From Candidatus Omnitrophota bacterium (lineage in GTDB: Bacteria > Omnitrophota > Gorgyraeia > Gygaellales > Profunditerraquicolaceae): a stretch of DNA of 26,844 nucleotides. Each line of letters begins with the position of its first letter. Position 1 is the first letter of the stretch. The notes below the pieces were generated by a model, which was not told the DNA's origin, did no database searches, and saw only the letters and a program-made list of their open reading frames with translations. The stretch lies in the NCBI GenBank assembly GCA_028717985.1, contig JAQUMS010000001.1, positions 1-26,844 on the forward strand, given 5' to 3'. Made by a program: the position numbers and the translations under genes. Shown here in pieces: positions 15,301 through 26,844 of this stretch.

Positions 15301-18300
15301 CAAAAATCATCTTTTTCTGTAATGATTCCGGCAATACCCCATATAATCCTTGCTGTATACTTAATATCTTTTTGGCATTTTCATCGTCAGGCCTTATAAT
15401 TGTTGATAAACCTTCTAATGGCAACGGATTATTATCTTTATCAATACAAACTGCAATCCCCAAATCTTTTCTCGTCTTTGCTACTGCTGCTCTACTAACT
15501 TTATAAACTTGCTTATACGCATCCTTATATTTTTGTTCAAGAGATGACTTATCATCTTTATTCTTTATTGTATTATTTTTTCTTTCTCCGCCGTCATTTT
15601 CAATTTTAGAGGGTTCATGTTCAACCCTGATCTTCTCAATAACCCCAACCAGATTCTCATTCTCATACAATGGACTCTGCGTCTCAATTCCTGTAACCTT
15701 GCTCTCATCTATCCTGACTATCTCTATTCCTCTCGCCTGAAGATCCGCCTCTTCTCCCTCTCCAAATAACGGCTGTCCTCCCTTTACATGCTTGCTAACC
15801 TGCGCGCTTCCCTGCAATACCAGCTTCGCGTCTTTCCCTTTAATCTTTACTTCCCCTAATTTTACTTTCGCGTCTTCTGATAATTCAGGCGCTATCACAT
15901 GCGAAATTATCTCTTCTATCTTTACTTCCCTTCCCAATACTTTGCTTATATGCCACGTTATCGCCTCAAGCTGTTTATTCAACGTCAATTGCTCGCTTAT
16001 ATTCAACTCATATTCTTCTTCTTCCTTTATATCCTTACTTTCAACTACCTTACCTTCTTTCTCTATCCTTACATCCTTTGATGTTTCCAAATCTGCTTTC
16101 ATCTTAGCTATATATACTACAGGCACTCCTAATCTTCTCCTGTTTACCAATTCTTCCGCTACTTCCTTATATAACAATACAGGCATCAATGATGTCCATA
16201 AGGACCCGTTCCCCATCACGATTGCTTTCGCCCTGCTCAACGCTTCAACCGCTTGCCTGCTCGCTTTTGGATAATTCTCCGAATTTATATCCAGTTCTAT
16301 AAAATTATTCGCTTCTTTACCTATATCTACCCGGTGCGTAAAGTATTCTTCCCTTATAAATTCTTTATGCGCCTTATCCGTCATGATCGTCTGCGCAGCT
16401 ACTAATCCACCATTCTCATATTTTCCTACCAGCGCACTATGTTCATAATCGTAACTTACGGGGATAAACTGCGTTTCTCCCAATGCCATCAGTTTATCAA
16501 GATTCGGGAATCCTACCGCTTGGCTGTCTTTTCCTCCACTCAGTAATCCCATGTCGTACGCCGCTCCCATCAACAACAAATTCGCGCTCGACATCTTCTT
16601 TAACGGTATGATACCTTGTCCTACTAATTCACGGTCTACCAACTCTCCCAGATTTAATACGCTGGATAAAAATATAAGATAATCTGTTGATTTTTCAAAT
16701 TCTTCGGATGGATTCTTTAATATCTTCCTGATGAGGCTCTTGATCTCTTCTTTTTGGGTGGGTTCTTCTATTGCAGTCAATACTTCACTTAATCTCTTTT
16801 CCCACACAGGATACAACTTCTCTCCCGTTATTCGCCCTTTAGTCGTTACGTATTCCGGCATTTTATCCGCGTCTGATTCACTCCAGAATAACGTGAATAT
16901 TTTGAAGTTATCGTTGCTTAAAAATATCGCCAGCCCTGACGCGTCTCCCGGAGGGATAAAATACATCCCCAGATTCTTGAACAGGCTCGCCATGATTTCC
17001 CAGCTCGCTCCTCCGTCATCTGATGATGATATTATACATGCTATCTTCCTCAATCCTTTGGCTATCAGCCTCTGTAAAAACGTTGTGGTCGCTTTCCCGC
17101 CGCCACCAAGGTATACTAAGTCTAATAACCCTTTCTTTTCCGGCGGACCTCTCCCTTCATACTGCTCTAAGATTGATTCCTTATATTTCTGGTAATACCC
17201 ATCCTGAAAATATCCTGCCAATATTCTCCCAACGCTTAATCCCGTGTTCTTCTTCACATCCCATACCGCTTCTTCCAACTGCCGGTTATTCCTCTTCAAA
17301 TTGTCTTTATACACCGATTCCAGAAAACCCAATGTCCTCGCCGCACGCGCATCTATCCCTGCATAGAATTTCATGAATTCTATTCCCTCTCTGCCTCCGT
17401 ATATTTTATCTGCTCCTGCAAAATACTCTTCCGCTGTCTTTGATACCTCATAAATATTTTTCATCTCTTCCAACGCTTCGTATAACTCTTCACCTCTCTT
17501 CATCCCTATCCCAAGCTGGTATAAATCTATCCAACTGGCACGGTTTAGATAATTTAAATTGAACTGCCGGTATACTTCCGACAATACTTCCATCCGTTCC
17601 GCAAACGTCAATGACCTGTTTACTCTCTTTACGTTCTGCCTCTTCAGATATGTCTCTGCCGCGTTTAAACAATAGTCTCCTGCTTCCCTCAACTCTACAA
17701 ACGTCTTCCCTTTGGACATACCATCCAGAAAATAATACACCACTCCCAATCCAAACCCGATATGCTTAAATCCTTCTACCTCATAATTTTCATCCGTCTT
17801 CTCTACGATATCATTTATATATCTTCTTACCCCTTCAACATTCTTAAACGGCAAATCTTCTGAATACACCTGCAGATTCCCGAATAATAACGCATCTTTC
17901 CCTTCTATCTCTCTGCTTAATAAGTAATCCCTTAACGCATGGTCTTTCCCTGTATGTCTCTTACGGATATCTATTGATGTAATGCCCGACTCCCTCACTG
18001 TGTATTCTTCCCAGAACAATGAATGGTATTTCTTCAACAATTCTATCGTCCCTCTGCAACATTCTTCTCGCGGCGACATCTCTCCTTCTTCTATATTAAC
18101 TATCTCCAGCTTCTTCGACGGCAGATGGATTATACTCACGCTATACACTCTTCCTTTGGCATCACGATGCAGGATCACTTCCGGCTTCTTGAACGGATAG
18201 TTCGGGTATTTGTTCCTCATCAAGCTCTTGTTCCCTTCATACTCCGCCCAGAATCGATTCGCCTGTTCCTTTAATACGCTTTCTATTACTTCTACCTGTT

Positions 18301-21300
18301 TCTCCGGAATATAATTCGAATTGTTGTAATCGTTCTCTGTCAACGGTATTCCGTATTCATTGTATTCTACCTTAAATGTCCCAGCCGACGCGTATACTGC
18401 CAGGTTCTTTCTTACGTCATACGGCAGGTATTTTACTATTCTCGTCGCTAATCCTTTTTCTCCCGTATGATCATCATCGTAATACCGTAAGTTACTGATC
18501 AACACGATCTTCTGCCCTTTCCTCAGCAGTTCCACCAACGGCTCCCGCACAAAGCTTTCTTTTAATGTCCCTTTACGGAATTTGTCATACGGCAAAATTA
18601 CTCCATCCGGACCTCCCAATACTATTACTTCCGGATTCCCGCTCCTTTCGTAGCCGCCGTCGCTAGTCATCCACGCTTTCAGCATATCCAGCGCAGGTTC
18701 AAGGATCGCTTTCACCTCGTCCAAATCCTTTGCGTCCCTTACTTCGAATATAATTGTCGGCGATCCGCCCAACGCCATCCTGATCACGTTGGCTATCCCA
18801 TACACATACGTCGCATCATCTACCGTGATATTCTCTTCTACCATCTGTGTCCCTAATCCTTTACCGTATGTATTGGTATATACTATCGCTATATTGAACA
18901 CATTCTCAGGATGCGACATGATCGCTTCTATACCCGTATGCGCCACTCCAGGCAACCCTAATAACGGACATGTGATCCCTTTCCCTGCGAACCGCTCTAC
19001 TATTCCTCGTGCAATCGCTTTGATCTTCGGGTTCTCCGCGTCCACTTCCATGAACGTCAACGGCATATACATCATTTTCTCTTTTCTGCCTGTGAACATC
19101 TTGATCAGATACATCCCCAACGCTTCTGCCGCGCTGTAGCCTTCTGTCTCTATCTCTTCTCCCTTTTCTACCGCGACTGATATCTTCATCTTATCCTGAT
19201 CTTGAGTCTCTATCACTACCTGCTGATTCAATGTTACAGGTTTATTATCTGTCTTTCTCATCGCATCCATAAACGATTTCCCAAACGCAGCTTCCATATC
19301 CGATATCTTGCTTCCGCCCGCTTCTGCAAAATCGCTCTTGAACACTTCTTCTGCTATCGCGCTCGTTAATACTCTCACCACTCTCGATTCTGCAATCATT
19401 AATTTTGTTCCCACCTCAACTATCGCTTCCATGAATGTCCTGAAATCTTCACCTTCCGCCTCTTCATATCCACGCCGTATAATTCGTTTTGTTTTATCTT
19501 TCTTATCCACATCTATGCTCTTTTCAGATTTTATACGGTTCTCGGTTTCTTTCGCCTGTATTTTGGATATAACGTCTTCAAAGGTTACACGGATATCTTT
19601 ATCTCCGCGCGCTTTCTTGGCTTTCTCTATCTCAAACATCGCCGCAGTGATCTCTCTGACGAATTTTACCGCGGGATTCGAATTCGCGTCCTGTTTCGTC
19701 AAATAGGTAAAGTACACTACCATATCCTGTAATAACGAGCTTGTCCTTCCGATGACTTCCAAATTATTCCTTAAATCTTCCTTTATATCTAATGATACTA
19801 TGATTACCGGGATCCCTCTTCTTTCAAGGCTTTCCGCATATTCGTATGCTTGTCTGTAATTACCATTGTTCCGGTTCAATAAGAAGATCGGCAACTGGGT
19901 ATTCCCTGCCTGCTCAAACACTGTTTCATATAAGGTACGGTCTGATTCCAAGCCATATCCTACCAACACGTTGTTATTCGTTCCGCCGGCAATGTTCTTG
20001 TTTGCCCCTTCGTTATTTAACTGCAGGAATTCTTTGGCTATGAATCTTAAATCATTGTCGTAGATTATCGCGAACCGGTTATGCCCATTCATTCTCTGCC
20101 TGAACAGCATTTCCGCAAGTTTGATTCCACCACTTTTTAAACCATTGCTATACGCTAATTCCTCATTGGCTCCTGCCATGGTCGAAACGTAGTATTCCAA
20201 ATATTTTCTCGCTTCTTCCACGTCTTTTAATCCGGCTACTAACCCTAAGTACAACGGGATATACACCATCAGGGTTTTCCTGTTCATCTGTCTGCCGCCG
20301 ATATCCCCGGGTATATCGTCTATAACCAATATTCTCGCGTCTGCATCTTTCATTAATTCTTTGCCTGCTTCATTTAATTTTCCGCTGTTGGCTGCTACAA
20401 TTCTCTGTTTAAACCGGTCTTTGGTCGCGTTGAAGAAATCCACTGTTTCTTTCGTGCTCCCGCTTCGGGACATTTCGAATATTAATGTGTTCTTGTTATT
20501 CGCTCCAGCAGGAATGATCTTCAAATGCGCCGGGTTATTCACTACCACCCATTTCACATGGATACCTCTCATCTCAAAGTATTTGTTCAATGCCCACGCC
20601 AGCTGATGTGTGTACATTTCATTCGCGCCAATCCCTGATGTGAACACGTATTCGATTCTTCCTAAGTCTACTGTCGCAAAATACGCGTCTAACCGCTCAA
20701 TTAATTCTTTCAGATCAGGATATTTACTTGCTCCTTTGATTGCGGTTAATCCAAGGAACCTGCCTGTGAAATCGTTCATGTTATCTCTGAACACAAACGA
20801 TACCATACCTGCTGTTTCTCTCATGAATCTCAAATACTCTGTTATTGCCCCGCCTTCTACACTGCTTTCGCCGCCTTCTATTCCATATCCTTCCGCTTGT
20901 ATATCCACGCTGATCTTTTTATCCGCGAATTCGCCTTTTCCGTATTCTTTTACCTGTCTTAGTTTGTAATCTTCTACCACTGGCCGGAAGAACTTCACTC
21001 CCTCTAATATCTCTGCCGCTTCGTCTGTTCCCAATCCTGCCGCTTCTGCCATTCCTTTTACAAACGCCACGCTGTCTATGGATGTCCTTAAGATCTGTAC
21101 CACTCTCTTGTAATCGCTGATTCCAAGCATCCTCATTACATAATCCAGTTCCACTAAGAATCTTCTCGCGTCTAAGCTAAAGGTACCTTGTCCTTCATTC
21201 GCTAAGACTTCCCCGCCGTCTCTATAGCTCTTAGAGTTTGCGTCCTTCGTCCTTCGTCCTTCGTCCTTCGGAGAAAATTCTCCGCCGTCGTTAGTGTTAA

Positions 21301-24300
21301 ACAATTCCATCATTTCAGCAGCTTTCTCCGCGTTCATCTTCACCACTTCTGCAATATGCGCCGCCGGTAATTCTGCCATCGCCTCTTCCATGGAAACCTG
21401 GCCTAAGCCCATGATAAACGGCCGTGAGTTAAACAGATAATCGGTTGTAAACGTGTGGATTAATCCATCCCGGGTCCTGCCCAGGGATTTCAATAACGCT
21501 TTTCCGGTCTGCTGAAGCGGTTTTCTGGTTTCGCGGTTCAACCAAGCCTTCAGACAAGGTTCCATTTCCGTCAAGATTGATATGGACATCGCGTCGCCCA
21601 TCTGAGCGATTCGTATAAATCTGCCTATCATCGCGTTGCTCACAGCACGGGTAAGTTTAACCGGTTTTATTTCCGCCCCATATTGATCTGCGGCTTCCTT
21701 CCCGAACAAATACGCCTTAAGCTCAATCAAAATACGATTAACCAGGTATGTTTCTTCAACAGGAATTGTTCCCAATGTCTTGATCTTGGCTATTTTAACC
21801 AGCATTGTTTTTTCCGCGTAGGCTGATTGCAATAATTCCATCACGATGTTTTCATCCGTAAATTTATGGTTTTTCTGCAAACCAATATCGTTAAGATATT
21901 CCGTCAAGAAGTTCACCGCGCGATACCGAACAAGCATATCTTCCGCGTCAATGCTTAATTCCACTAAAGCCTTTGGCAAATCAAAATTTTCGGCATTAAG
22001 TTTAATTAACGCGCGGTAAGCCTGGATCATTGTGTCGCGATTCGCAAGCGCTTCACTCAACGCGCTAATAACGGCTTCATCGTTTACGCCTAATTCTCCA
22101 AGCGCTTCCGCCATACGAACACCGGCCAATGGATCTTCGTTTTCCAATCTATTGATCAATACATGCTTTGTTTCTTCCGCGAAAACGGTATTCTGAAGCT
22201 GTTTCACTAATTCAAGAATACGCGTCCGGGAAATCTCAGTTCTTAAAAGTTCAACACCATCAGCAGTTACATCTGTTCTTCCGTCCACCATCCATTGTCC
22301 TTCGCCTCCCTGCTCAACATCCCCGCCGTCTCTATAGCTCATAGAGTTTGCGTCCTTCGTCCTTCGTCCTTCGTCCTTCGGATTAACATTTTCTTCCTGT
22401 CTATTTTTAATGTTATTTTCAATTAATTCTCTATCACTTTCAGATGGAGTATAGAATCGCGCGATTTCAGATAATTCCCTAGTTATCAATAACCGCTGTA
22501 GCCTGCTTAACGCAGGATTAACTTCCATGTTGCGTAATACTCCGACTTCATGCCTGAATAACTTCCGGGTAATAGGATGTATTTGCCTATTATCTCCACC
22601 GTCACGATAGCTCATAGATGATAGCAGATAGCTCGTAGTTCTTTGCTCTTTGCTCTTTCTCTTTGCAAAACCGTTATTGCCTTTACTCTGTGCGCTATAC
22701 TCTGTACTCGGTCCTTGAACTACTTGGTCTCTTGATCCCTTGAGCACTTGGGCACTTGTTTCTCCACCATCGTTGGTGTTCTTAGCTTCTTGGTCGCTTG
22801 GGTTCTTGGTCTCTTGGACACTTACATTTAGTGATTTCTTAAGAAATTCTGCCGCTTCCAATACATTCGCAGAAATTGATTCTAAACTGATCCAACCCTT
22901 AACTGAATACTCCTGAATTTTGTTGATTTCTGCTAAAGCATCAATAATTTCCTGATCTGTCCCTGTAACTGTGTATGGAGCGTAGGTATAAACATGAACC
23001 CTTAAAGGAGCTACCTGTTGCACGAAATGCTGTATAAAATCAAGATAGGATATTCTCATCTGTAAAGGCTTGGACATAAGAATCACGGTATAATCGCCGA
23101 AAGATAATAAACCGCTTGATAAAAGCATTTCCTTTGCATTTTTTATATTCTCATTTGTATTGGTCGATTTAGTTTCCAGGATAATCTTCTCTTCCGGAAC
23201 AACATGAAGCGTCAATAACTTCGCGATAATTTCAGCTTCGCTTAAAACTTCAATATTTTCAAATACATTGCCGAAACCGGCCTTCCTGACGTTTTCAATT
23301 AACGGAGCAGTTAACCTGCCTTGAGCGCCTGAAACCAAAATCTTATCAGTCTTTCCTTCAGTATACAACCCGGACGCATGCCTCATGGTTGATAGATCAT
23401 CATTACCTAATAAAATGGTCATATCAGCTTTATACACTGGCAGAACGCTGATCTTATCATGAGCCATAGTCAAATAATCGGCAATTGTCTGCAATGCTTT
23501 TGCCTGCTGTTCTCTGGGATCTGCTTTCTTTCCGGCTAACCATTCATTCAGCTTCCCGGTCTTATGGGCATACCACAAACCTGCTGCGAGGCCAATTCCA
23601 ACACCTGCCACAATACCGAAGAATTGAGTCTCAGCCATGAATTTCAAAAGCGAGCCATTGTCAACAAAGAAACCTCCATCGTTATGTTTTGCTTCTGTAA
23701 TTTCAATCAGGATATCTGCAAGATAATTATTTTCATAAAGCGGTTTCTGCTTTTTTATACCTGTTATATGATCTTCAGGCACATCAATGATTTTTATTCC
23801 TACCGCCTCCAAAGATTCCCGCTCAGTCCCCAGAAATAATGGCTGTTTACCTTGCACTTTTTTGCTTACCTGCGCCTTTCCTTCTTTAATCGCAAGGGCA
23901 TCTGTTCCCGTAATAATTATTGTGCTCAAATATTCCGAAGTTTCCGGTTTTAAATCAGGAACCACTACATGCGAAATAATATCTTCAATCTTGACTTCTT
24001 GATTAAGTGTCCTGCTTACATGCCGCCGTACAGCCTCAAGCTGCCATCCTAAAGATACCTGATCTTTAATATTTAATGTATACTTATCATCTTTACTCAA
24101 TGCCGCCTTATCAACCGGTTCACCTTTATTATCAAGAATCTTAATCGATTTTGCAGTCTCTAAATCCGCCTTTATCTTGGCTATGAATACTACCGGAACT
24201 CCAGCTTTTCTTCTTGATACCAATTCTTTGGCGATTTCAGGATATAACAACACTGGCATCAAAGATGTCCATAAAGAACCATTACCCATAATTATTGCTT

Positions 24301-26842
24301 CGGATTCATTTAACGCTTTGACCGCCTGACTGCTTGCCTTAGGATAATGTAACGACGTCTGGTCGAGTCTTACAAAATCACGGCTTGCCTTTTCTTCATC
24401 CGCACCTACACGATGATGAAAAAATATCTCCCAGACAAAATCATCGTGGATACTATCTGTCATTCTTGTCTGCGTCCTAATAGAATCCCCATTCATATAT
24501 ACACCTACAAGCGAGCTGTGTTCATAATCATAACTAACGGGTATAAACTGTGTTCCCTTCAACGCCAACAACTGCTCTACTGTGAAAAATTCTCCCGCCT
24601 GAACGCCTTTCTCGCCGATTAATCCGTTATCATATGCCGCTCCCATCAACAATAAATTAGCACTCGACATTTTCTTTAACGGAATTATACCTTTGCTGAT
24701 TAATTCACGGTCAAGCATCTTTCCTAGATTTAATATACTAGAGGTAAATACAAAAGAATCTTCAGGAATTTCAAAATTAACTCCTTCTTGGTTCAAGATT
24801 TCCCCGCTTTCTATTGCTGATCTTAATTGCGCTTTCCTGACAGGATTTGACATCGCGGAAAGCATTTCGGCAAGCCTTCTTTCCCATACGGGATAAACTT
24901 CTTCAGCGGTAATACGCCCTTTAGTTGTCACAAATACAGGCATTTCTTTAGGATTAGACTCGCACCAGAATAATGTTAGTATCTTAAAATTGTCATCGCT
25001 TAAGAATATTGCCAATCCCGACGTATCGCCCGGCGGGATAAAATAAATACCTAATTTATTGAATAAACTCGCCATAATTTCCCAGCTTGCTCCTCCATCA
25101 TCCGATGATGAAATAATACAAGCTAAAAGTCGTAAGCCTTTGGCGATAAATTGCTGTAGCAAAGTTGTAGTAGCCTTACCACCTCCACCTAAATAGGCGA
25201 TTTTCGGTGGTGCACGTCCAGATTTCCCTTTAAGTATCTCCTGTTTATATCTTAAATAATATCCATCCTGGAAATATCCCGCTAAGGTCCGGCTGATGCT
25301 AATCTGGGTCTCTTTATGCGCCGCTTCGATATCACGAATTAAATCTTCATTTGTTTTTTTCAAATGATCTTTATATAACCACTGTAAAAATGCGAGTGTA
25401 CGAGCAGCCCGAGGATCTGTTCCCGCATAAAAATCTATTAAATTCAAGCCGTGATGTTGCAAATAAATTCTATCTATTATTTTAAAATAATCATCTATAC
25501 AGGAAACAGTGTTATATGCTTGCATTACGTCCTGTAATGCCCTGTTTAATTCTTGGCCCTGAGCAACTTTCATTCCTTTCAAATAAAGCCTGGTCCATGT
25601 AGAACTTTTTAAATAAGTAAGATTAAATGAATCATAGGTTTCGCTTAAAAAATCAATTTTCTCTTTAAAAGTTAGATTGTTATATCGTCGGGAATTTAAT
25701 TGTTCCTCCAGATATAATAATGACGCTATCGAACAATAATCATGCGATTTATCTTTCAAATCTCTAAAGTTTCCGCCTTTGGATATTCCATCAAGGAAAT
25801 AATATATTGCTCCCAATCCAAAACCTATATGTTTAAAGGCACTCCCCGATATCAGCTGTTTATTTCTCCCGTTTACATCATTTATATAACGATGTATCCC
25901 AGGAACAAGTTTAAACGGTTCATCTTCCGAATAAACCTCAAGATTACCAAATAGTATTGCATCTTCCCCTTTAATCCCTCGCTCTTTTAGATAATCCTGC
26001 AACGCATGATCTTTACCCGTTTTAATATTCCTGATATCTATTGAAGTTACGCCGGATTCCCGGACTATTATTGTTTCTTTCAAATCAGGATTTTGTTCAA
26101 TTGCCGCCTTAATGTCTTTAAAATATGATTCTCGTAAAGATTGTTCTTTTGCCTCTAAATTAAAAACTTCCAATTTCCTTGAAGGAAGATATATCATACT
26201 TATACTGTATACTCTTCCGGAAATATCTTTGTGGAAAATTATCTCCAGATCTTTAAATGTAAAATTAGGATATTTATTTCTCCATACACTCTTGTTTTGT
26301 TGATATTCATCCCAATATTTTTTCTTTAAATCTTGCAGAATATTATTTATGGCAGATACGGACTTTTCGGTAATATATGTTTTTTCGTTATATGTGTTTT
26401 TAGTCAGAGGTATTCCGTATTCATTGAATTCCACCTTGAATGTTCCAGCTGACGCATATATTACCAAATTCTTTCTCACATCATACGGTATCAGCTCCAC
26501 GACTCTTGAATAAATACCCTTTTCTTTCGTATGATCGTCATCGTAATACCGTAAGTTACTAATCAGCACGATCTTCTGCCCTTTCCTCAGCAGTTCCACC
26601 AACGGCTCCCGTACAAAGCTTTCTTTTAATGTCCCTTTACGGAATTTGTCATACGGCAAAATTACTCCATCCGGACCTCCCAATACTATTACTTCCGGAT
26701 TCCCGCTCCTTTCGTAGCCGCCGTCATTTTCAATTTTAGAGGGTTCATGTTCAACCCTGATCTTCTCAATAACCCCAACCAGATTCTCATTCTCATACAA
26801 TGGACTCTGCGTCTCAATTCCTGTAACCTTGCTCTCATCTAT
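2..26842 (-). CDS. Giant multidomain protein, internal fragment (>=8,947 aa; start and stop both outside the window); DGG-delimited carbohydrate-metabolism and cell-envelope modules
   Basis: Manual translation of the minus-strand frame whose codons begin at + positions 2,5,8,... shows no TAA/TAG/TGA across the window. Recognisable enzyme motifs occur in this one frame from end to end (EPCGLTQ at 629-649, HLHIQ at 2897-2911, SDDGG three times, DGDGT at 14291-14305, STNTNEN near 23150). Confidence 0.96.
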   Translation of the reverse strand, partial: MDESKVTGIETQSPLYENENLVGVIEKIRVEHEPSKIENDGGYERSGNPEVIVLGGPDGVILPYDKFRKGTLKESFVREPLVELLRKGQKIVLISNLRYYDDDHTKEKGIYSRVVELIPYDVRKNLVIYASAGTFKVEFNEYGIPLTKNTYNEKTYITEKSVSAINNILQDLKKKYWDEYQQNKSVWRNKYPNFTFKDLEIIFHKDISGRVYSISMIYLPSRKLEVFNLEAKEQSLRESYFKDIKAAIEQNPDLKETIIVRESGVTSIDIRNIKTGKDHALQDYLKERGIKGEDAILFGNLEVYSEDEPFKLVPGIHRYINDVNGRNKQLISGSAFKHIGFGLGAIYYFLDGISKGGNFRDLKDKSHDYCSIASLLYLEEQLNSRRYNNLTFKEKIDFLSETYDSFNLTYLKSSTWTRLYLKGMKVAQGQELNRALQDVMQAYNTVSCIDDYFKIIDRIYLQHHGLNLIDFYAGTDPRAARTLAFLQWLYKDHLKKTNEDLIRDIEAAHKETQISISRTLAGYFQDGYYLRYKQEILKGKSGRAPPKIAYLGGGGKATTTLLQQFIAKGLRLLACIISSSDDGGASWEIMASLFNKLGIYFIPPGDTSGLAIFLSDDNFKILTLFWCESNPKEMPVFVTTKGRITAEEVYPVWERRLAEMLSAMSNPVRKAQLRSAIESGEILNQEGVNFEIPEDSFVFTSSILNLGKMLDRELISKGIIPLKKMSSANLLLMGAAYDNGLIGEKGVQAGEFFTVEQLLALKGTQFIPVSYDYEHSSLVGVYMNGDSIRTQTRMTDSIHDDFVWEIFFHHRVGADEEKASRDFVRLDQTSLHYPKASSQAVKALNESEAIIMGNGSLWTSLMPVLLYPEIAKELVSRRKAGVPVVFIAKIKADLETAKSIKILDNKGEPVDKAALSKDDKYTLNIKDQVSLGWQLEAVRRHVSRTLNQEVKIEDIISHVVVPDLKPETSEYLSTIIITGTDALAIKEGKAQVSKKVQGKQPLFLGTERESLEAVGIKIIDVPEDHITGIKKQKPLYENNYLADILIEITEAKHNDGGFFVDNGSLLKFMAETQFFGIVAGVGIGLAAGLWYAHKTGKLNEWLAGKKADPREQQAKALQTIADYLTMAHDKISVLPVYKADMTILLGNDDLSTMRHASGLYTEGKTDKILVSGAQGRLTAPLIENVRKAGFGNVFENIEVLSEAEIIAKLLTLHVVPEEKIILETKSTNTNENIKNAKEMLLSSGLLSFGDYTVILMSKPLQMRISYLDFIQHFVQQVAPLRVHVYTYAPYTVTGTDQEIIDALAEINKIQEYSVKGWISLESISANVLEAAEFLKKSLNVSVQETKNPSDQEAKNTNDGGETSAQVLKGSRDQVVQGPSTEYSAQSKGNNGFAKRKSKEQRTTSYLLSSMSYRDGGDNRQIHPITRKLFRHEVGVLRNMEVNPALSRLQRLLITRELSEIARFYTPSESDRELIENNIKNRQEENVNPKDEGRRTKDANSMSYRDGGDVEQGGEGQWMVDGRTDVTADGVELLRTEISRTRILELVKQLQNTVFAEETKHVLINRLENEDPLAGVRMAEALGELGVNDEAVISALSEALANRDTMIQAYRALIKLNAENFDLPKALVELSIDAEDMLVRYRAVNFLTEYLNDIGLQKNHKFTDENIVMELLQSAYAEKTMLVKIAKIKTLGTIPVEETYLVNRILIELKAYLFGKEAADQYGAEIKPVKLTRAVSNAMIGRFIRIAQMGDAMSISILTEMEPCLKAWLNRETRKPLQQTGKALLKSLGRTRDGLIHTFTTDYLFNSRPFIMGLGQVSMEEAMAELPAAHIAEVVKMNAEKAAEMMELFNTNDGGEFSPKDEGRRTKDANSKSYRDGGEVLANEGQGTFSLDARRFLVELDYVMRMLGISDYKRVVQILRTSIDSVAFVKGMAEAAGLGTDEAAEILEGVKFFRPVVEDYKLRQVKEYGKGEFADKKISVDIQAEGYGIEGGESSVEGGAITEYLRFMRETAGMVSFVFRDNMNDFTGRFLGLTAIKGASKYPDLKELIERLDAYFATVDLGRIEYVFTSGIGANEMYTHQLAWALNKYFEMRGIHVKWVVVNNPAHLKIIPAGANNKNTLIFEMSRSGSTKETVDFFNATKDRFKQRIVAANSGKLNEAGKELMKDADARILVIDDIPGDIGGRQMNRKTLMVYIPLYLGLVAGLKDVEEARKYLEYYVSTMAGANEELAYSNGLKSGGIKLAEMLFRQRMNGHNRFAIIYDNDLRFIAKEFLQLNNEGANKNIAGGTNNNVLVGYGLESDRTLYETVFEQAGNTQLPIFLLNRNNGNYRQAYEYAESLERRGIPVIIVSLDIKEDLRNNLEVIGRTSSLLQDMVVYFTYLTKQDANSNPAVKFVREITAAMFEIEKAKKARGDKDIRVTFEDVISKIQAKETENRIKSEKSIDVDKKDKTKRIIRRGYEEAEGEDFRTFMEAIVEVGTKLMIAESRVVRVLTSAIAEEVFKSDFAEAGGSKISDMEAAFGKSFMDAMRKTDNKPVTLNQQVVIETQDQDKMKISVAVEKGEEIETEGYSAAEALGMYLIKMFTGRKEKMMYMPLTFMEVDAENPKIKAIARGIVERFAGKGITCPLLGLPGVAHTGIEAIMSHPENVFNIAIVYTNTYGKGLGTQMVEENITVDDATYVYGIANVIRMALGGSPTIIFEVRDAKDLDEVKAILEPALDMLKAWMTSDGGYERSGNPEVIVLGGPDGVILPYDKFRKGTLKESFVREPLVELLRKGQKIVLISNLRYYDDDHTGEKGLATRIVKYLPYDVRKNLAVYASAGTFKVEYNEYGIPLTENDYNNSNYIPEKQVEVIESVLKEQANRFWAEYEGNKSLMRNKYPNYPFKKPEVILHRDAKGRVYSVSIIHLPSKKLEIVNIEEGEMSPREECCRGTIELLKKYHSLFWEEYTVRESGITSIDIRKRHTGKDHALRDYLLSREIEGKDALLFGNLQVYSEDLPFKNVEGVRRYINDIVEKTDENYEVEGFKHIGFGLGVVYYFLDGMSKGKTFVELREAGDYCLNAAETYLKRQNVKRVNRSLTFAERMEVLSEVYRQFNLNYLNRASWIDLYQLGIGMKRGEELYEALEEMKNIYEVSKTAEEYFAGADKIYGGREGIEFMKFYAGIDARAARTLGFLESVYKDNLKRNNRQLEEAVWDVKKNTGLSVGRILAGYFQDGYYQKYKESILEQYEGRGPPEKKGLLDLVYLGGGGKATTTFLQRLIAKGLRKIACIISSSDDGGASWEIMASLFKNLGMYFIPPGDASGLAIFLSNDNFKIFTLFWSESDADKMPEYVTTKGRITGEKLYPVWEKRLSEVLTAIEEPTQKEEIKSLIRKILKNPSEEFEKSTDYLIFLSSVLNLGELVDRELVGQGIIPLKKMSSANLLLMGAAYDMGLLSGGKDSQAVGFPNLDKLMALGETQFIPVSYDYEHSALVGKYENGGLVAAQTIMTDKAHKEFIREEYFTHRVDIGKEANNFIELDINSENYPKASRQAVEALSRAKAIVMGNGSLWTSLMPVLLYKEVAEELVNRRRLGVPVVYIAKMKADLETSKDVRIEKEGKVVESKDIKEEEEYELNISEQLTLNKQLEAITWHISKVLGREVKIEEIISHVIAPELSEDAKVKLGEVKIKGKDAKLVLQGSAQVSKHVKGGQPLFGEGEEADLQARGIEIVRIDESKVTGIETQSPLYENENLVGVIEKIRVEHEPSKIENDGGERKNNTIKNKDDKSSLEQKYKDAYKQVYKVSRAAVAKTRKDLGIAVCIDKDNNPLPLEGLSTIIRPDDENAKKILSIQQGLYGVLPESLQKKMIFVKEHDLHITLGVINNATPNNHDVILLLRNKVEDSFPGSLRLSGIKIGAFKGGIIILEFYPDGVSDYKIFDSINKGVKESFLEFNQFNPVLYHMTLFYVKELLTEEEHKILYEKIEEFRPLKQSVLLLVDNLYLEHFCASVNVYDHDIIGTFFNLKQKYNIISTLLSQELTEMLVEEGGRQIRKFLEKLSTGGKSAYADLSKVQGLWEAVEEYGKEPAKYSTETLLKRDSSSIPRIEVRGRNESSGEAAQVAIIGIPLNYREDTMKEFRRLPGAEKMSLKMGGFMTVEANIAGVDKALPIRYVRSHLVEILEVAGYEAGIVIDARKTMTIVMSDGDGTLYGKPTATENPILKKSAAYRALIEYLNAGGVYMLISGNDLGLTLQRILAEDALPVEIRNRFIVVANGAASLNVFDKEGNIKEYTGYRLNALNEEAEEQEELDAIYLGDDEKKGGNDWPAYEEMGFERSVSVTSKGKKDVMDIVHKNYVGGNEVGTGLVLKGAVEYAREHRGERLFGIKELEALIRISESEITAPSQNDGGLGMSRKEDYKQNLVLFERLYQKDADEVLQILKVEADHTGRFLDEIVAGIVGILEIKDSKSLYSNLNFTKLARAPPIEYIWIGGAGIRTTSFLKSLVNYFMKKAGDKYRNYKRLIVLAIDGVSDDGGHIRKLEDSLLNVPGWDKYPLATGDIGVFPSIFTLSDSKIELLTLKRITGKSVEEQIFENIKDITFRFRDNLPVDWNFFCANMFSVARRIDREWVAPGIITESLNGASFGVNRASWQNLFYVMSRYLTGELKKGNQHISNERRVYPGVYEMVGAINGLAVPCSFDQSSMAAILQGMGVKINDEVMVIGKANGNFYYTKVEGIVINVERIEDGKNVKERKIFFRTTPLKTDKFHLISRKGVSFTLGGKKIKLTVNKNGSVILRCNGEKFTISEDKGDEGKTFIRYRNQDYVLPTNTSWFFLKINHSFIEFKSRMVEEQTNISDAKDYHLTPIEKVIFRNVEMKAVGVQQGKIRTYAFRKSGEYSYANLEAIEGIRSTKQAIIFGDCSFVTSLLPNLMTEGIPQEMAARKDIPRIFMFKIMQDTESKGLSVIQQIELIERSIRMNTSFKSFKFKDICDYIVLFDPQEIDAATYWKFQALKEEQRKILEQPEIQKRIAIGELKYSKIVPEDPAEFNKDTLKEELARKGIKSYFVKVSDVKLSEINGKYAYKEESMIRILHEIVKDFSGEDGGEGKEDIKETRGILYGFLEETGLLPMFSNYGEFPESHQIFEAWKFYDEKLSSAQVYYFSKNVILGKADVEIEKDIISLHSCWFRSFVPGHEFGREIIARTFIRGAEIGELVYGQMPAEVERYYTLSQREEKELDEWDGIFDGSIAAGIQQQINNSDAYFKKIFTTELKSISLIYEDRKLGIIRESTLSFIARAKSEWIRYMYKKRFPEAKFNKNDIERLLKINFLINKYITLKSISKLNLETEKLLLINKILLDIENNLNDFLQLGDKNSPEFFEDRMGKDNFVNSKIVKDINYRDGGEKPVVRTMRIPSTPATWKRIENLKRFNHQMANGITAEDSRSQLEGSSLEEIYNGKGKGGIIITAVQPDQKVLKEMEIEAGMRPKTFFIKYDHKKLTLFYFTQKEAKEYQTRVALGDEEVILPDISVILKIAGVSVVHIDGKQYLGLADYDEFLERIKDIMQRKQSDGGIETYPGYLNGNVISPANAYSTGTEAGQRSYEIPWPFPDKQSIRGIHDPEWVKSFMVVWAISELNERSSRQITVNRILKKTKDVFEAHGFTWDRDHVISLLNGLRRRGLIVNAKSGNRKDFSVEEDKVTVDLNARLYAVWSRNVEDINVDLAEGFIHGKEEFLNVIAEYAKVTALWGRYPVEVNHVILRAIMFFDESSRKTMADWILSGPRNSALEDAIALNLDYERAVQDWLKMQAYELTGRSIYHLTAEISPMAGGLGRVELYHGNAMFELGADSIYVAPWYLHSRDSFGNLYTVDYGSLPNPITDIKPYATMETFIQGCKVRFEVAQGYLNVKRGDTVNLIPIYLIRDIPENYHCRIINILYEYSTCDCPASIWEFTEFFNKAALELIRKREVEKKHEKELLHEEYKSCVVDSNDAQTLPVAAFRKAFYSKKESIAPAPDKDEAFEIMNSALFSGTTHTYYNRAWADDFEFGKNFLRKAGIPDEWLWLFLHIFVDDYGTWKVVWDLTSGGVRASDVSKAVAAVHAFEVNKYDPAVDLFGVTNGDNYVYSSEFFRDALIKTGSRDYLHPTPLEILAAKSYVKKEMGLNQYQMVVGYFGRLVPEKAGRKRAFTNVNIEAMVKAGIQVVIYGVARWNPVMRGELEALEADLKSKKEKEPDVYSGRFIFKSQFSIDDQRKALAATDVQIQDSDRETEAAGSTESDIGANGGLQLATPYWEGMIPFMGDLVNREKMTGNVLMPEKDSAESYLKVVLWANEQYQSGELSQLQSYAYKISGFVDARYTAAAYLRFWHNGFRGKRAVVNPRVVGEIGIDSKYLTLTSTTSRGEISIFKDENEFYLMGKKKEVGNLAKNLILTLSISVDPEFAPFGSSRVPEDSIFVELVNDHGIRLKFSPVRKIYDNVIEYSLTIPEDFPLPFKGTVRATSGLWQQVRSFEIVPEEYDPLEGDELIETLCPVDFKVNDARNILFGKFGMFPFGFETSEGMQYANSAGIIGFMNKANMLLKNGTTIRTPFYHFIRYIAGLCEGCVTKDILVKHMRFIGSKQISDEEKMKELLELLKQFTRRSEYRLVESWVNGLTIEQMATLMIGNKNVNSFSFRTVSGPVTAETSGLKSFETVLKNLIANRHAEPVIENDFMDFIKYMDAMFKGVKGWEEIMAYLQTIAQEPVPSFLKAYFLFRFVEKLNEKMEENLVEAFINKATLDNAETVLNSGKFDMKPFEFYTLRGRWMADSAGLQDFLFTMKQVNGKGGVSFHDYMNYLRKLFEDMPDSKYMMDYLEYVGSHEIPEYKKFVALLEKLEVRLISRIQYYRMFSCEPAQSGFKCEVDLESPERFFDGGIADKNTVITSGIKNQSGNEILVTRKKMVMNIKDTLLKKADILGALRAPVSEVEAVKLISRYQLNIIMALANGTAYDSLQKGAQRKIAMENYEYLLSLMGVDAHFKKTIRTASHKIVNIKILQIKKTFSDKALAIKAKGEVMNILEARDIVGRYYYIIHALAVSLPYSSLREDFRNTIAEDSYEYLQDEMVNDKLFGMVITEADTMVLADKVKHESVWERAKILADSENGKLILKDSLKLIGNYAYVLLGLARGLKYVELHSNGLEMVSFHTYNEIVETLTGNPVFRSAVTGSISGIDVTPEYYKQVLEDKADLLLLQEGKISRALAEGLIGYHFEVMRILAEGMPYSSLSDYARRQLSAGIYYYLAREIVDDAGFGRKIVRASGKAINIRMEGIKNKILASARKIVNDEEIVGITQAKAKINHNYLIIHSLAHAQQFEISPVGRQKILVKASYEFLLGEMKRDEMFADYIIHADQMVIAKNGWRKILMGRAQVLAAKKNANMSPEDAVKLIGNTYFVLRGLSRSLAYQELDHCAWDNISQDEYENILGNKKRDIEFTKIVNNAMRNIYIHQRDITGSLIKKASLVLALDKRIDFWSARKLFGRYIYIFEGLADNVSYRGLDIEAQNLMTSAEYEALLIEVKKNDELKELIVQADSALGIGFWDKRLIILNKAKDIIAHKSSLTLAQASGIVGPYRYVLRALDENLPYHSVYAETRAVVSEKQYAVLQDLMKEDYLFAVMIRNAVSIIKVQKSNFNINEITHNPIMAVFLEIQSGDVSEKWKQSLSVRDQEYADIFEYLRENDDVLKRVLQLFMIGEVNSDVLARIIKDQLKQPQLKTVTGFGSHMLGAIHRALAKRGYVFDEEWVVTPKTVELLIGYTRNYRKAEGKIFNTDELYSVPSVLARLEEIAGISAVGIQYPLAPEKGAAFSASGFMPQGGIIAQNRENDGGDESEFDRNLKREWDRKFKQGLFGFDISRVSLRDEGKFKVLFHPDRPMTINLMKQLMPPIQGYNPSKFNFHKANPQELLMSLNVGGVNTDLFINIQPRVAYNFFMVPERKANLPQVISEREIRVALALLDMSKASNFRLGFNSLGGGTRVFHLHIQGFYYWGVIPVEKFATETVEDISGVLFEKTVDYPAESYVVRSENALGVARLTSMIIAQFLRNNIPHNLIFARSGPEKKIVILPRKSIFPIINETYLDFGWQEISGEIVVPTKEMFENITENDIHYLLASIAEPLAFTIRKVGAEAKSISVRVLEDGGTSRKKSARGQTKEINVAYAEIEKARLEERGYRIQGVNPVIMSQWKDPAKRDVDLYLHALVLIAGIELELPYGVGKIDVYRAVRESNIILIKEASRPVPEMYFDIISRTLYIFEKLDDFSSEELALKLMSTVLRAVSRLRIPAADESSWKNIRNYLQPANFKKVITLLRPDWPERPFRSLQIAEIALEVTRLTYKVGGLADVGYGLSKELAKIGHNVDIFTLKYSKPTNSPADQNLRYEYIGSVWVPIGSTWTVEVKVYRTNLHTLPGIHDLKGRLRGYVLEPVGSGSVLAEYPYSDQLSLEQAILISRGSLQAMKDIPELHKNSYDIIHAHDKDSALSLVYKDGLPEFRHYFSRMQPILTINNIRHQGVHSFDRFSLLNLPYEYGGVFDNFGSMNLLKGGIVKSNRANTVSERHAYELTTAEGGRDLDWLLSQKAREFRFSGIINGIDYNFYNPATDPILPFRYDFAHGNVRESFEQKRNNKEVLQKLLGLKVDRTAPVIALIARLDDQKGVGLLAAKIRDILKANRNAQIIVAGREYDKQSVDQIRWLPFEYDPEGKWDFRGRAYILPKFLDESIVHLVYASADIFLVPSLDEPCGLTQMIAARYGTPAVVRYVGGLADTIENYDPLRKTGYGFVFFDPTPEALQEAIQRALETYSQEDHWLRILENLRKVDFSWNNSAIKYILMYWDAMTFNGASGKSVFEQDGGSATDNAVLKLYTKTNLRIFNILTFIIGMVAMNRDIVFNTAYFYQSVVLNGFAFGEYAYKVVFFTAVVQFLLEEAFDKKFAVKFKSMFQSSIYFGAAVSLLMA
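368..1895 (-). other. glgA: GT5 glycogen/starch synthase domain
   Basis: LQIAEIALEVTRLTYKVGGLADV (KxGGL at 1835-1849), IIHAHD, LLKGGIVKSNRANTVS, GIINGIDY..NPATD, IARLDDQKG, VPSLDEPCGLTQMIAARYGT..VVRYVGGLADT, GFVF, DFSWNNSAIKYILMY. The full GlgA motif series is in the correct order. Confidence 0.95.
2438..3361 (-). other. HIT-superfamily GDP-hexose phosphorylase domain (GDP-L-galactose phosphorylase VTC2 / GDP-D-glucose phosphorylase GDPGP1-like)
   Basis: EWDRKFKQGLFGFD, YNPSKFNFHKANPQELL, LFINIQP..FFMVP..LPQVI, FRLGFNSLGGGTRVFHLHIQG (HxHxQ at 2897-2911), FGWQEISGEIVV. These parallel the VTC2 motifs EWEDR..GLFRYD, KFNFTK and FRLGYNSLGAFATINHLHFQ. DGG lies on both sides. Confidence 0.85.
3900..6040 (-). 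repeat. Eight degenerate ~90-aa helical protein repeats of unknown family
   Basis: The motif [LI][IVF]GxYxY(V/I)(L/I)x(A/G)LAxx(L/M)xY recurs with the Gly-position codon at 6029, 5753, 5483, 5213, 4940, 4670, 4400 and 4130. Spacings are 276, 270, 270, 273, 270, 270 and 270 nt. Confidence 0.8.
7442..9490 (-). other. Alpha-glucan phosphorylase (GT35)-like GT-B domain with C-terminal beta domain; PLP-lysine position is Asp
   Basis: YHLTAEISPMAGGLG, IYLIRDIPEN..ILY, DSNDAQ, FSGTTHT (8831-8842), SKAVAAVHAFEV, FGVTNG, GYFGRLVPEK, IQVVIYG, TDVQIQDSDRETEAAGSTESDIGANGGLQL (8105-8131 = EAAGSTESD), then a beta domain ending YSLTIP..GTVRA. Order and spacing match bacterial GlgP. Confidence 0.78.
10223..11608 (-). 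other. Two DGG-bounded modules of unknown function (294 aa at 10727-11608; 165 aa at 10223-10717)
   Basis: Open in the main frame and bounded by DGG at 11609, 10718 and 10214. No motif recognised. Part of the region is very AT-rich (8 G+C in the 60 nt of 10921-10980). Confidence 0.6.
11640..13470 (-). other. YvcK/GlmR (UPF0052, CofD-like) domain, divergent copy C, with a ~130-140 aa beta-rich insertion
   Basis: YIWIGGAGIRTT, LAIDGVSDDGGHIRKL, LATGDI, VEEQTNISD, ANLEAIEGIRSTKQAIIFGDCSFVTSLLPNLMTEGIPQEM, IPRIFMFKIMQDTES, AYKEESMIRIL. Confidence 0.75.
13750..14810 (-). other. HAD class IIB (Cof/PMM-like) phosphatase or mutase domain with non-canonical motif order
   Basis: EANIAGVDKA (motif III-like, 14414-14428) precedes SDGDGTL (motif I, 14291-14305), LISGN (motif II, 14177-14188), ANGA (14087-14098) and YLGDDEKKGGND (motif IV, 13943-13972). 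Confidence 0.8.
14880..15420 (-). other. 2H phosphoesterase (LigT / cyclic phosphodiesterase fold) domain
   Basis: Two Hx(T/S)-hydrophobic motifs 85 aa apart: DLHITLG (15272-15283) and LYHMTLF (15017-15028), preceded by EGLSTII. AT-rich segment. Confidence 0.75.
15588..15714. repeat. Perfect direct repeat of 26718-26844 (end of the YvcK module including the DGG codons; the match runs off the window)
   Basis: 127/127 identical, offset 11130 nt (in frame). Confidence 0.97.
15600..17130 (-). other. yvcK: YvcK/GlmR (UPF0052, CofD-like) domain, copy B
   Basis: LVYLGGGGKATT, ACIISSSDDGGASW, FIPPGD, SSANLLLMGA, QFIPVSYD, YPKASRQAVEALSRAKAIVMGNGSLWTSLMPVLLYKEVAEEL..PVVYIAK..LET. Confidence 0.85.
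17740..18652 (-). other. Degenerate (pseudo-)HAD IIB domain, copy B
   Basis: VIVLGGPDGVIL (motif I with the nucleophile Asp replaced by Gly), IVLISN, VYASAG, SGITSIDIRKRHTGKDHAL (motif III), LLFGNLQVYSEDLPF (motif IV, GD changed to GN). Confidence 0.65.
18464..18661. repeat. Near-identical direct repeat of 26528-26725 (start of the HAD-YvcK module up to the DGG codons)
   Basis: 198 nt with 4 mismatches, all synonymous; 18549-18661 is a perfect match. Offset 8064 nt. Confidence 0.95.
18670..19230 (-). other. Second, partial PGI-like C-terminal (SIS) segment
   Basis: MMYMP..ARGIVERFAGKGITCPLLGLPGVAHTGIEAIMSHPENVFNIAIV..ALGGSPTIIFEV parallels the PGI segment Y..L..QL.AESLGK.G..P....G..DQHS..Q...GP.D...A...GRP.I.I. 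It ends at DGG 18653. Confidence 0.5.
19640..20790 (-). other. pgi: Phosphoglucose isomerase (SIS)-like domain
   Basis: VFTSGIGANEM (20621-20638), LIFEMSRSGSTKET (20444-20470), IPGDIGGRQ (20291-20305), AIIYDNDLRFIAKEFLQLNNEGANK (19997-20023), YLTKQDANSNPAVKFVR (equivalent to NPFDQPGVE..K). Confidence 0.75.
21211..21272. repeat. 62-nt direct-repeat cassette copy 1, containing (CGTCCTT)4 and the RDGG codons
   Basis: Identical to 22321-22382 except one base (21231 T vs 22341 A). Encodes PKDEGRRTKDANSKSYRDGG. Confidence 0.97.
21290..22321 (-). other. Alpha-helical module with a HEAT/PBS-lyase-like repeat
   Basis: LINRLENEDPLAGVRMAEALGELGVNDEAVISALSEALANRDTMIQAYRALIKL (about 22010-22160). The module is flanked by the two 62-nt cassettes. 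Confidence 0.6.
22321..22382. repeat. 62-nt direct-repeat cassette copy 2, containing (CGTCCTT)4 and the RDGG codons
   Basis: 61/62 identical to 21211-21272, offset 1110 nt (in frame). Encodes PKDEGRRTKDANSMSYRDGG. Confidence 0.97.
22604..22830. repeat. Degenerate 7-nt-periodic tracts forming low-complexity in-frame linkers
   Basis: atagctc-atagatg-atagcag-atagctc-gtagttc-tttgctc-tttgctc; tactctg-tgcgcta-tactctg-tactcgg; tacttgg-tctcttg; tcttggt-cgcttgg-gttcttg-gtctctt. They lie between and next to DGG 22595 and DGG 22763. Confidence 0.75.
22850..23490 (-). other. YdcF / DUF218 (ElyC/SanA-like) domain
   Basis: IADYL..KADMTILLGNDDL..ASGLYTEGKTDKILVSGAQGR..SEAEIIAK..VPEEKIILETKSTNTNENIKNAKEML..VILMSKPLQMR. 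Confidence 0.85.
23563..23625 (-). other. Single predicted transmembrane helix preceding the YdcF domain
   Basis: FFGIVAGVGIGLAAGLWYA, uncharged and Gly-rich, followed by HKTGK. Confidence 0.75.
23700..25205 (-). other. yvcK: YvcK/GlmR (UPF0052, CofD-like) domain, copy A
   Basis: KIAYLGGGGKATT, ACIISSSDDGGASW, FIPPGD, SSANLLLMGA, YPKASSQAVKALNESEAIIMGNGSLWTSLMPVLLYPEIAKEL. Paralogous to 15600-17130 with many synonymous differences. Confidence 0.85.
25780..26716 (-). other. Degenerate (pseudo-)HAD IIB domain, copy A
   Basis: Same GGPDGVIL, IVLISN, SGVTSIDIRNIKTGKDHAL and ILFGNLEVYSEDEPF motifs as copy B. Confidence 0.65.
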
Positions 26843-26844
26843 CC

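Follow-up and report, generated by a model that had tools for sequence, protein, structure and literature searches.

Probable recent gene conversion between paralogous modules, bounded by a module junction, in a giant multi-enzyme gene of an Omnitrophota genome

Two copies of one module in a giant gene

The 26,844-nt window that we analysed is the whole of contig C1 (JAQUMS010000001.1) of a metagenome-assembled genome (MAG) from a Candidatus Omnitrophota bacterium (G000; 299 contigs, 1.63 Mb, 43.5% GC), and position 26844 is thus the end of the contig. The window is occupied by a fragment of a giant multi-enzyme gene in which Asp-Gly-Gly (DGG) tripeptides stand between modules. Two copies, A and B, of a module with HAD-like and CofD-like parts lie in this fragment, and they share a near-identical tract at their starts, immediately next to DGG. 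The features concerned are the following.

Positions 2-26842, minus strand: fragment of the giant multi-enzyme gene, a single open reading frame (ORF) of 8947 codons (8947 aa), open at both ends
Positions 23672-26716, minus strand: copy A of the HAD-like + CofD-like module, residues 43-1057 of P0001
Positions 15587-18652, minus strand: copy B of the same HAD-like + CofD-like module, residues 2731-3752
Positions 26528-26725, minus strand: near-identical tract at the start of A, including the upstream DGG codons (26717-26725), with a perfect run at 26613-26725
Positions 18464-18661, minus strand: partner tract at the start of B, including the upstream DGG codons (18653-18661), with a perfect run at 18549-18661

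The Pfam matches in the window ORF are three CofD domains, DUF218, a Cof-type HAD domain, HEAT repeats and a glycogen/starch synthase of GT5 + GT1 type. DGG occurs 20 times in the ORF, 17 times between modules and three times as part of an SDDGG motif inside the CofD-like domains. Across the MAG, 35 contigs (187 kb) are open end to end in one frame, and 39 contigs have an open frame spanning at least 90% of their length; DGG is found at a density of about 2-4 per 1000 aa in frames of at least 800 aa versus 0.15 in shorter frames. Judged from its sequence, the window gene appears to belong to the giant multi-enzyme class of the Omnitrophota, with a very long ORF, many unrelated enzyme families and relatives that carry similar genes; family-level relatives have open frames of 17,867 and 68,606 aa.

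A first-pass annotation of this DNA, made from the letters alone, had described A and B as diverged at synonymous sites except for 198 nt with four mismatches, 113 nt of which were perfectly matched. We found the same pattern. The two copies have a protein identity of 58%, their synonymous sites are saturated outside the start tract, and they appear to be ancient paralogous duplicates. Read in the direction of the protein, the exact match starts on the first base of the DGG codons (26725 in A and 18661 in B) and extends to offset +103 (26613 and 18549), which makes 113 nt including the 9 nt of DGG. Both lengths had been given as lying after DGG; they are correct as numbers, but they include the DGG codons themselves. 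The four mismatches fall at offsets 104, 150, 155 and 179 (26612, 26566, 26561 and 26537) and are all synonymous, and the divergence of A and B sets in at offset 189. In an NG86 analysis, synonymous divergence (dS) over codons 1-63 was 0.10 and nonsynonymous divergence (dN) was 0, while over the remainder dS was above 2 or undefined. The longest identical run of A and B inside the module was 104 nt, compared with a maximum of 32 nt in 2000 shuffles.

At its other edge, the tract stops on the first base of the DGG codons (GAC). It is therefore a discrete stretch in which dS lies far below that of the flanking homologous sequence, as gene conversion would leave it. A dS of 0.10 directly beside saturated dS can only be reconciled with an exchange that took place recently between old paralogs, and the recent recombination between diverged copies that had been proposed at first pass is borne out both by this contrast and by the edge on the first base of DGG.

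The two copies also differ in composition (GC 36.7% for A versus 42.1% for B; coding-strand GC skew 0.21 versus 0.39), a gap that is unusual within one gene; the modules may differ in age or origin. The start tract of A is B-like in this respect (GC 47.5% and GC skew 0.36; 36.7% and 0.21 in the rest of A), and this base composition hints that B was the donor. A and B are on the same contig with 8 kb of unique sequence between them. Compared with the three old copies (37-48% aa identity) of G010, the only relative with strong matches, they are each other's closest match in every segment, and there is no orthologous pair to compare.

The end of the contig and a candidate third copy

Upstream of A, the window runs through a DGG junction into the end of another module, of which the contig holds a stub. 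This stub, the end of B and a longer segment suggested by public contigs are listed here.

Positions 26718-26844, minus strand: contig-terminal 127-mer, identical to the end of B; a merge vertex of the k = 127 graph and probably the stub of a module (copy C) upstream of A
Positions 15588-15714, minus strand: end of copy B, its last 42 codons (...KIENDGG), identical to the contig-terminal stub
Positions 15588-16921, minus strand: probable full B-type 3' segment common to a third copy or a strain variant, as suggested by X1 Logan contigs

The end of B and the contig end (15588-15714 versus 26718-26844) are identical at 127 of 127 nt, while the ends of A and B are about 54-55% identical to each other; the earlier observation that the end of B matches the module upstream of A, and not the end of A, was thus confirmed. 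As a measured tract, the 127 nt had to be given up. Exact terminal matches of 126/127 nt to other contigs recur at 30 contig ends in the MAG and are by far the commonest length class, from which it follows that the assembly used k = 127. Base 26717, the third base of the last Gly codon, differs from 15587, and the contig ends exactly 127 nt further on. The contig stop is a vertex of the graph, where the unique path coming from A joins one that the assembler had already taken for the end of B; unable to pass the repeat shared by C and B, the assembler ended the contig one k-mer (127 nt) into it. The identity between the end of B and the contig end is at least 127 nt, the length seen being the k of the assembler and not the length of a tract.

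Other contigs of the MAG end in similar ways. C52 and C268 both run from DGG into a common module and both stop on the same 127-mer, C100 stops within a repeat that it has in common with C292, and C268 starts within a 98.6% copy of the end of the PGI module. The first-pass annotation had accepted that its reading would fall if the identical tracts were an assembly artefact. For the terminal identity, the length is indeed set by k, whereas the internal start tract does not behave in this way: it is neither a verbatim copy of B (four differences in 198 nt) nor joined via a shared k-mer (113 nt is less than k). Given these four differences, an exact match shorter than k and no switch point beyond offset 189, the start tract is real sequence in the sample.

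Two of these contigs also bear on the extent of the gene. C52 (minus strand) probably extends it beyond window position 1, with an overlap of 38 nt and 1 mismatch, and this continuation would add 2465 aa with PPDK-like, methyltransferase and radical-SAM-like modules. In C268, the second PGI-module end (98.6% nt identity to 18667-18946) is followed by a second HEAT module (65% aa identity).

Next, we looked into how the B-type end continues in public data. Run X1 is a landfill metagenome and the probable source of the MAG; Logan contigs (k = 31) of this run, rather than raw reads, were placed on the window. One X1 contig starts exactly at 15588 and continues unbroken to 16867 at a depth of 9.4, compared with 4.2-4.8 for the contigs over A. 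Another X1 contig tracks B to 16921 and then passes into a homologous, strongly diverged third version of the module, which encodes PGDAAGLATF where B encodes PGDASGLAIF and A encodes PGDTSGLAIF; past 16921, this third version is on no MAG contig. Because X1 contains 100% of the sampled words of B's own N-terminal part, both branches are present in X1. An apparent hole in X1 over 16928-18455 was dismissed as a sampling or filter effect, as X1 contains 100% of its words. Among the other runs, one contig of X4, where the start of A is hardly covered, crosses 15587/15588 unbroken, and one contig of X2 crosses 18661 unbroken. The pattern suggests a segment of about 1.3 kb (15588-16921) with two continuations at each end, which would belong to a third copy, C, or to a second strain.

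In a tblastn search of the MAG with all modules, no other contig was found to carry the body of copy C. When JGI metagenome contigs were scanned for exact matches to a 37-mer of the B end and a 30-mer of the third variant, none was found, and protein searches for fragments across the junction or across the 16921 breakpoint returned only distant relatives, with 42% and 53% identity. One of these is P0002, a metagenome protein fragment in which a module end of the HAD-like + CofD-like family is followed, after a short linker, by another module start of that family; a tandem arrangement is thus known for this module family.

DGG junctions across the genome and in relatives

We collected 113 junction DGGs in frames of at least 800 aa and counted as a pair any two with at least 75% identity over 60 nt on one side. 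This yielded 17 distinct pairs of homologous junctions, and the homology was one-sided at DGG in 16 of the 17 and two-sided in one. Among the dispersed repeats of giant-ORF contigs, six pairs show a sharp boundary at a distance of 0-9 nt from DGG, where chance would give about 2% per boundary. Homology thus switches at DGG throughout the genome, and the 16 pairs together with the six bounded repeat pairs indicate that modules have been moved or copied as DGG-bounded units. No strain differences in module order were seen in four runs, all of low coverage and analysed as contigs only.

The spelling of the junctions is biased as well. The codon GAC is used at 85 of 114 junctions (background 27%) and GGC at 66 of 114 (background 26%), both GC-rich and non-preferred. 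The octamer GACGGCGG is present 106 times in the MAG, where about 21 occurrences would be expected; within frames of at least 800 aa, 61 occurrences are in frame, none is off frame and 2 are antisense. Junctions in the window include those at 26717-26725, 18653-18661 and 15587-15595. Some junctions also carry a short linker cassette, two copies of which are in the window.

Positions 21207-21272, minus strand: linker mini-cassette ending in ...SYRDGG, partner of 22317-22382
Positions 22317-22382, minus strand: second copy of the linker mini-cassette, partner of 21207-21272

Related copies of this cassette (...KDEGRRTKDANSxSYRDGG) are found at junctions on C52, C268, C292, C243 and C211. The two cassettes of the window contain a heptamer array, (CGTCCTT)4, next to ...AGCTCTTAG....

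Peptidase_C39 (double-glycine peptidase) domains are encoded at four places in the MAG (C170:1683-2039, C294:425-817, C32:2047-2316 and C101:898-1317), three of them in contig-spanning giant frames. By sequence, they are candidates for cutting after ...DGG, which fits DGG as a putative processing site.

Two relatives were compared. G010 is from a different genus, is better assembled and contains the contig-spanning frame of 17,867 aa. Its junction motif is SSP[IVL] in place of DGG, and the junction motif therefore differs between lineages. Positions 18319-19765 and 26236-27682 of G010:C5 form an intragenic repeat of 1447 nt with 99.93% identity and a single mismatch, of which the start lies exactly at I-SSPI and the end 20 codons short of the next junction. 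The giant ORF of G009 (68,606 aa) showed no enriched junction tripeptide and no repeat of more than 93% identity longer than 123 nt (the longest being 265 nt at 90%), and it provides no test.

Interpretation, known systems and other repeats

With a probability of about 0.6, we favor a recent exchange of sequence, by gene conversion or recombination, between three or more paralogous modules, with the module junction as its limit. The HAD-like + CofD-like module is represented at the least by A and B, and a third copy (C) probably precedes A directly. Either A or B would recently have had its first 189 nt overwritten with the sequence of the other through non-reciprocal homologous recombination, by gene conversion or by a crossover with subsequent repair; in a separate or linked event, C and B would have come to be identical at their 3' ends. 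The two tracts would end at the DGG codons because the neighbors of the three copies are unrelated: the homology between differently flanked modules ends there, and a heteroduplex could not extend further. The junction spelling GACGGCGG may additionally act as in-frame microhomology. Conceivably, everything happened in a single complex event, through template switching on the 8-nt junction spelling or through a tandem or circular intermediate of B; this would explain why the patch resembles a circularly permuted B, and nothing in the data shows it. An unequal crossover between A and B was rejected, as reasoning from the observed order it would put the end of the PGI module, and not a B-type end, upstream of the hybrid.

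Several observations weigh against gene conversion as we reconstruct it. That a B-type end is joined to the start of A is read from the final 328 nt of a contig with low coverage. To connect the first base specific to A with the first position upstream of DGG at which a B-type end differs from the end of the PGI module, a read would have to span about 115 nt, and the Logan contigs placed on the window did not cover this join. The mean depth just downstream of B (bin 15400-15781) is 10.3, which matches the end of B and fits a mixture of two strains equally well; the X1 depth ratios are compatible with a two-copy repeat and with two strains alike, and we did not rely on them. Two independent conversion tracts abutting one junction are somewhat unparsimonious. 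No close relative that carries both A and B, as the classical test of concerted evolution requires, was found. Finally, the first-pass annotation had taken the peak of identity at DGG for a general footprint of shuffling or conversion. The peak is there for A and B, but in C52/C268 and C100/C292 the homology starts at DGG with mismatches that are densest there, become sparser with distance and give way to an exact 127-mer. As these pairs show the opposite gradient, the identity peak belongs to the A/B event and does not amount to a rule.

Some of the data would also be expected if the last 240-328 nt of the contig had been mis-extended or were chimeric, for example through B-B tandem reads or the arrangement of another strain in a mixed-strain graph, so that a B-type end upstream of A existed in no genome. 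The terminal identity equals k, the final 240 nt are B-type throughout (100%), before and after DGG, coverage is low (k = 31 depth 4-10), contig ends in the MAG often have overlaps of 100-400 nt with 98-99% identity to other contigs, and a third variant of the module is present in the same sample. We nevertheless consider such an artefact unlikely: besides its four differences from B, the tract is about 95% B-like over offsets 104-188 and continues into the body of A, the two copies have no exact match of at least k on which a graph path could switch, and a chimeric read would need a template switch on 9 nt. Moreover, an independent X1 Logan contig also breaks at 15588, as two continuations of a B-type end predict, and repeats bounded by junctions were also seen on further contigs and in a second genome. 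The contig ends on a 127-mer that is found 11,130 nt (3710 codons, in frame) upstream on the plus strand, as in a lollipop loop of an assembly graph; a unit of 11,130 nt, extending from the start of A through the whole of B, would agree with this if it were tandemly duplicated or circular and the assembler had gone around it once. Such a unit is very improbable, given that the depth over A is the lowest in X1 (4.2-4.8) and not double that of the flank beyond B and that the third variant diverging at 16921 provides the missing entry to the repeat.

Selection on the nucleic acid itself (an RNA structure, an internal start or a regulatory site) is scarcely credible as the reason why the 198-nt tract has stayed identical. 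The tract does lie at a module start, and its amino acids are among the better conserved parts of the module; yet it folds no better than shuffles (z = -0.18), the window has no Rfam match, no similar sequence was found at other module starts, and the tract is not conserved at the module starts of G010, which gave only one match of 36 nt at 89%. Such selection would not yield a perfect run of 113 nt beside saturated synonymous sites either. A dedicated exchange anchored at DGG, by microhomology template switching or by a site-specific activity on GACGGCGG, would diversify the gene through in-frame shuffling of cassettes, and we regard it as possible but doubtful. It would account for boundaries that in many pairs fall on DGG with single-nucleotide precision, for a junction spelling far more uniform than the peptide needs and for the G010 repeat, which likewise starts sharply at the junction motif. 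However, ordinary conversion tracts, or selection against broken modules, also predict a boundary where homology ends, and uniform codons could have come with copied junctions by inheritance; the G010 repeat ends 20 codons short of the next junction, linker cassettes of 60 nt supply ordinary homology at some junctions, and neither low-frequency joins of junction to junction nor differences between strains in module order were seen. When recombination was earlier described as anchored at DGG, the boundary was therefore rightly placed (16 of 17 pairs), whereas an anchoring mechanism does not follow, as tracts are also expected to stop where homology stops. We suggest only tentatively that DGG has a dual role, as a mark for peptide processing and, at the level of DNA (GACGGCGG), as an in-frame recombination point for copying, swapping and permuting modules. 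If this is true, the patch of B end, DGG and B start upstream of A would be what one such event left behind, perhaps by way of a module intermediate in tandem or circular form.

Giant proteins of the Omnitrophota have been described as 'Archaeovorins' (West-Roberts et al. 2023, bioRxiv 10.1101/2023.11.21.568195), and a second preprint describes 'class 1, multi-enzyme metabolic clusters' of this phylum (bioRxiv 10.64898/2026.06.07.730766). According to the two preprints, repeated Pfams in these genes are mostly old duplications, and the cleavage points are unknown (10.1101/2023.11.21.568195; 10.64898/2026.06.07.730766); term searches of both found no mention of junction motifs, of junction-bounded near-identical dispersed tracts or of gene conversion. 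The window resembles the genes described there in its contig-spanning ORF of more than 8,900 aa with many unrelated enzyme domains, as do the PPDK and radical SAM modules of C52 and the Peptidase C39 domains in giant ORFs of the genome. Giant genes of the Omnitrophota rank with the longest genes known. At this locus, modules would still be exchanging DNA while respecting the module junction to the nucleotide, and junction-bounded exchange would offer a concrete route by which giant genes could grow and rearrange without loss of frame. Paralogous repeats also explain where short-read assemblies of giant genes break, and identities of exactly k at the contig ends of such genes should not be read as biology.

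Gene conversion between modules is known from modular polyketide synthases, including GRINS (Nivina et al. 2021, PMC8256042). The likeness is that paralogous modules of one giant gene swap discrete tracts of DNA non-reciprocally, which leaves parts of the paralogs much more similar than the remainder. Unlike in the polyketide synthases, the modules here are unrelated enzymes and not an assembly line, and the edge of the tract is on a three-residue junction motif that has no counterpart there. A GRINS-like skew is absent, since the GC skew (0.36-0.38) and AT skew (0.14-0.15) of the tract are within the 5-95% range of the gene in 200-nt windows. Polymorphic toxins exchange cassettes at conserved junction motifs, which are VENN in CdiA and PxxxxDPxGL in Rhs. 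In both cases, a short conserved motif marks the exact point at which homology switches. In contrast to the toxins, the exchange here would be among internal modules of one gene, to either side of the motif. Toxin tips and immunity genes are absent, no orphan cassettes were noted although no search aimed at them was made, and strain-to-strain replacement was not seen in the four low-coverage runs.

The MAG contains two further kinds of repeats. A dispersed family of about 60-75 nt, with 90-98% identity and short inverted repeats, is located outside the contig-spanning giant frames, often with several copies in a row; these repeats look like REP- or MITE-type elements. Tandem arrays of 7 nt, (AGCTCTT)n and (GCTCTTT)n with 5 to 17 copies, are present at no fewer than eight places. 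Because their period is not a multiple of three, slippage of such heptamers within genes would shift the frame.

Repeats of about 60-75 nt: C5, C6, C10, C12, C14, C21, C39, C99, C103, C125, C180 and others, for example C10:6399-6473 and C39:7222-7292
Arrays of 7 nt: C29:1-125, C18:9005-9091, C12:6252-6298, C108:4115-4188, C87:2194-2261, C8:10190-10292, C25:4410-4458 and C4:2730-2766

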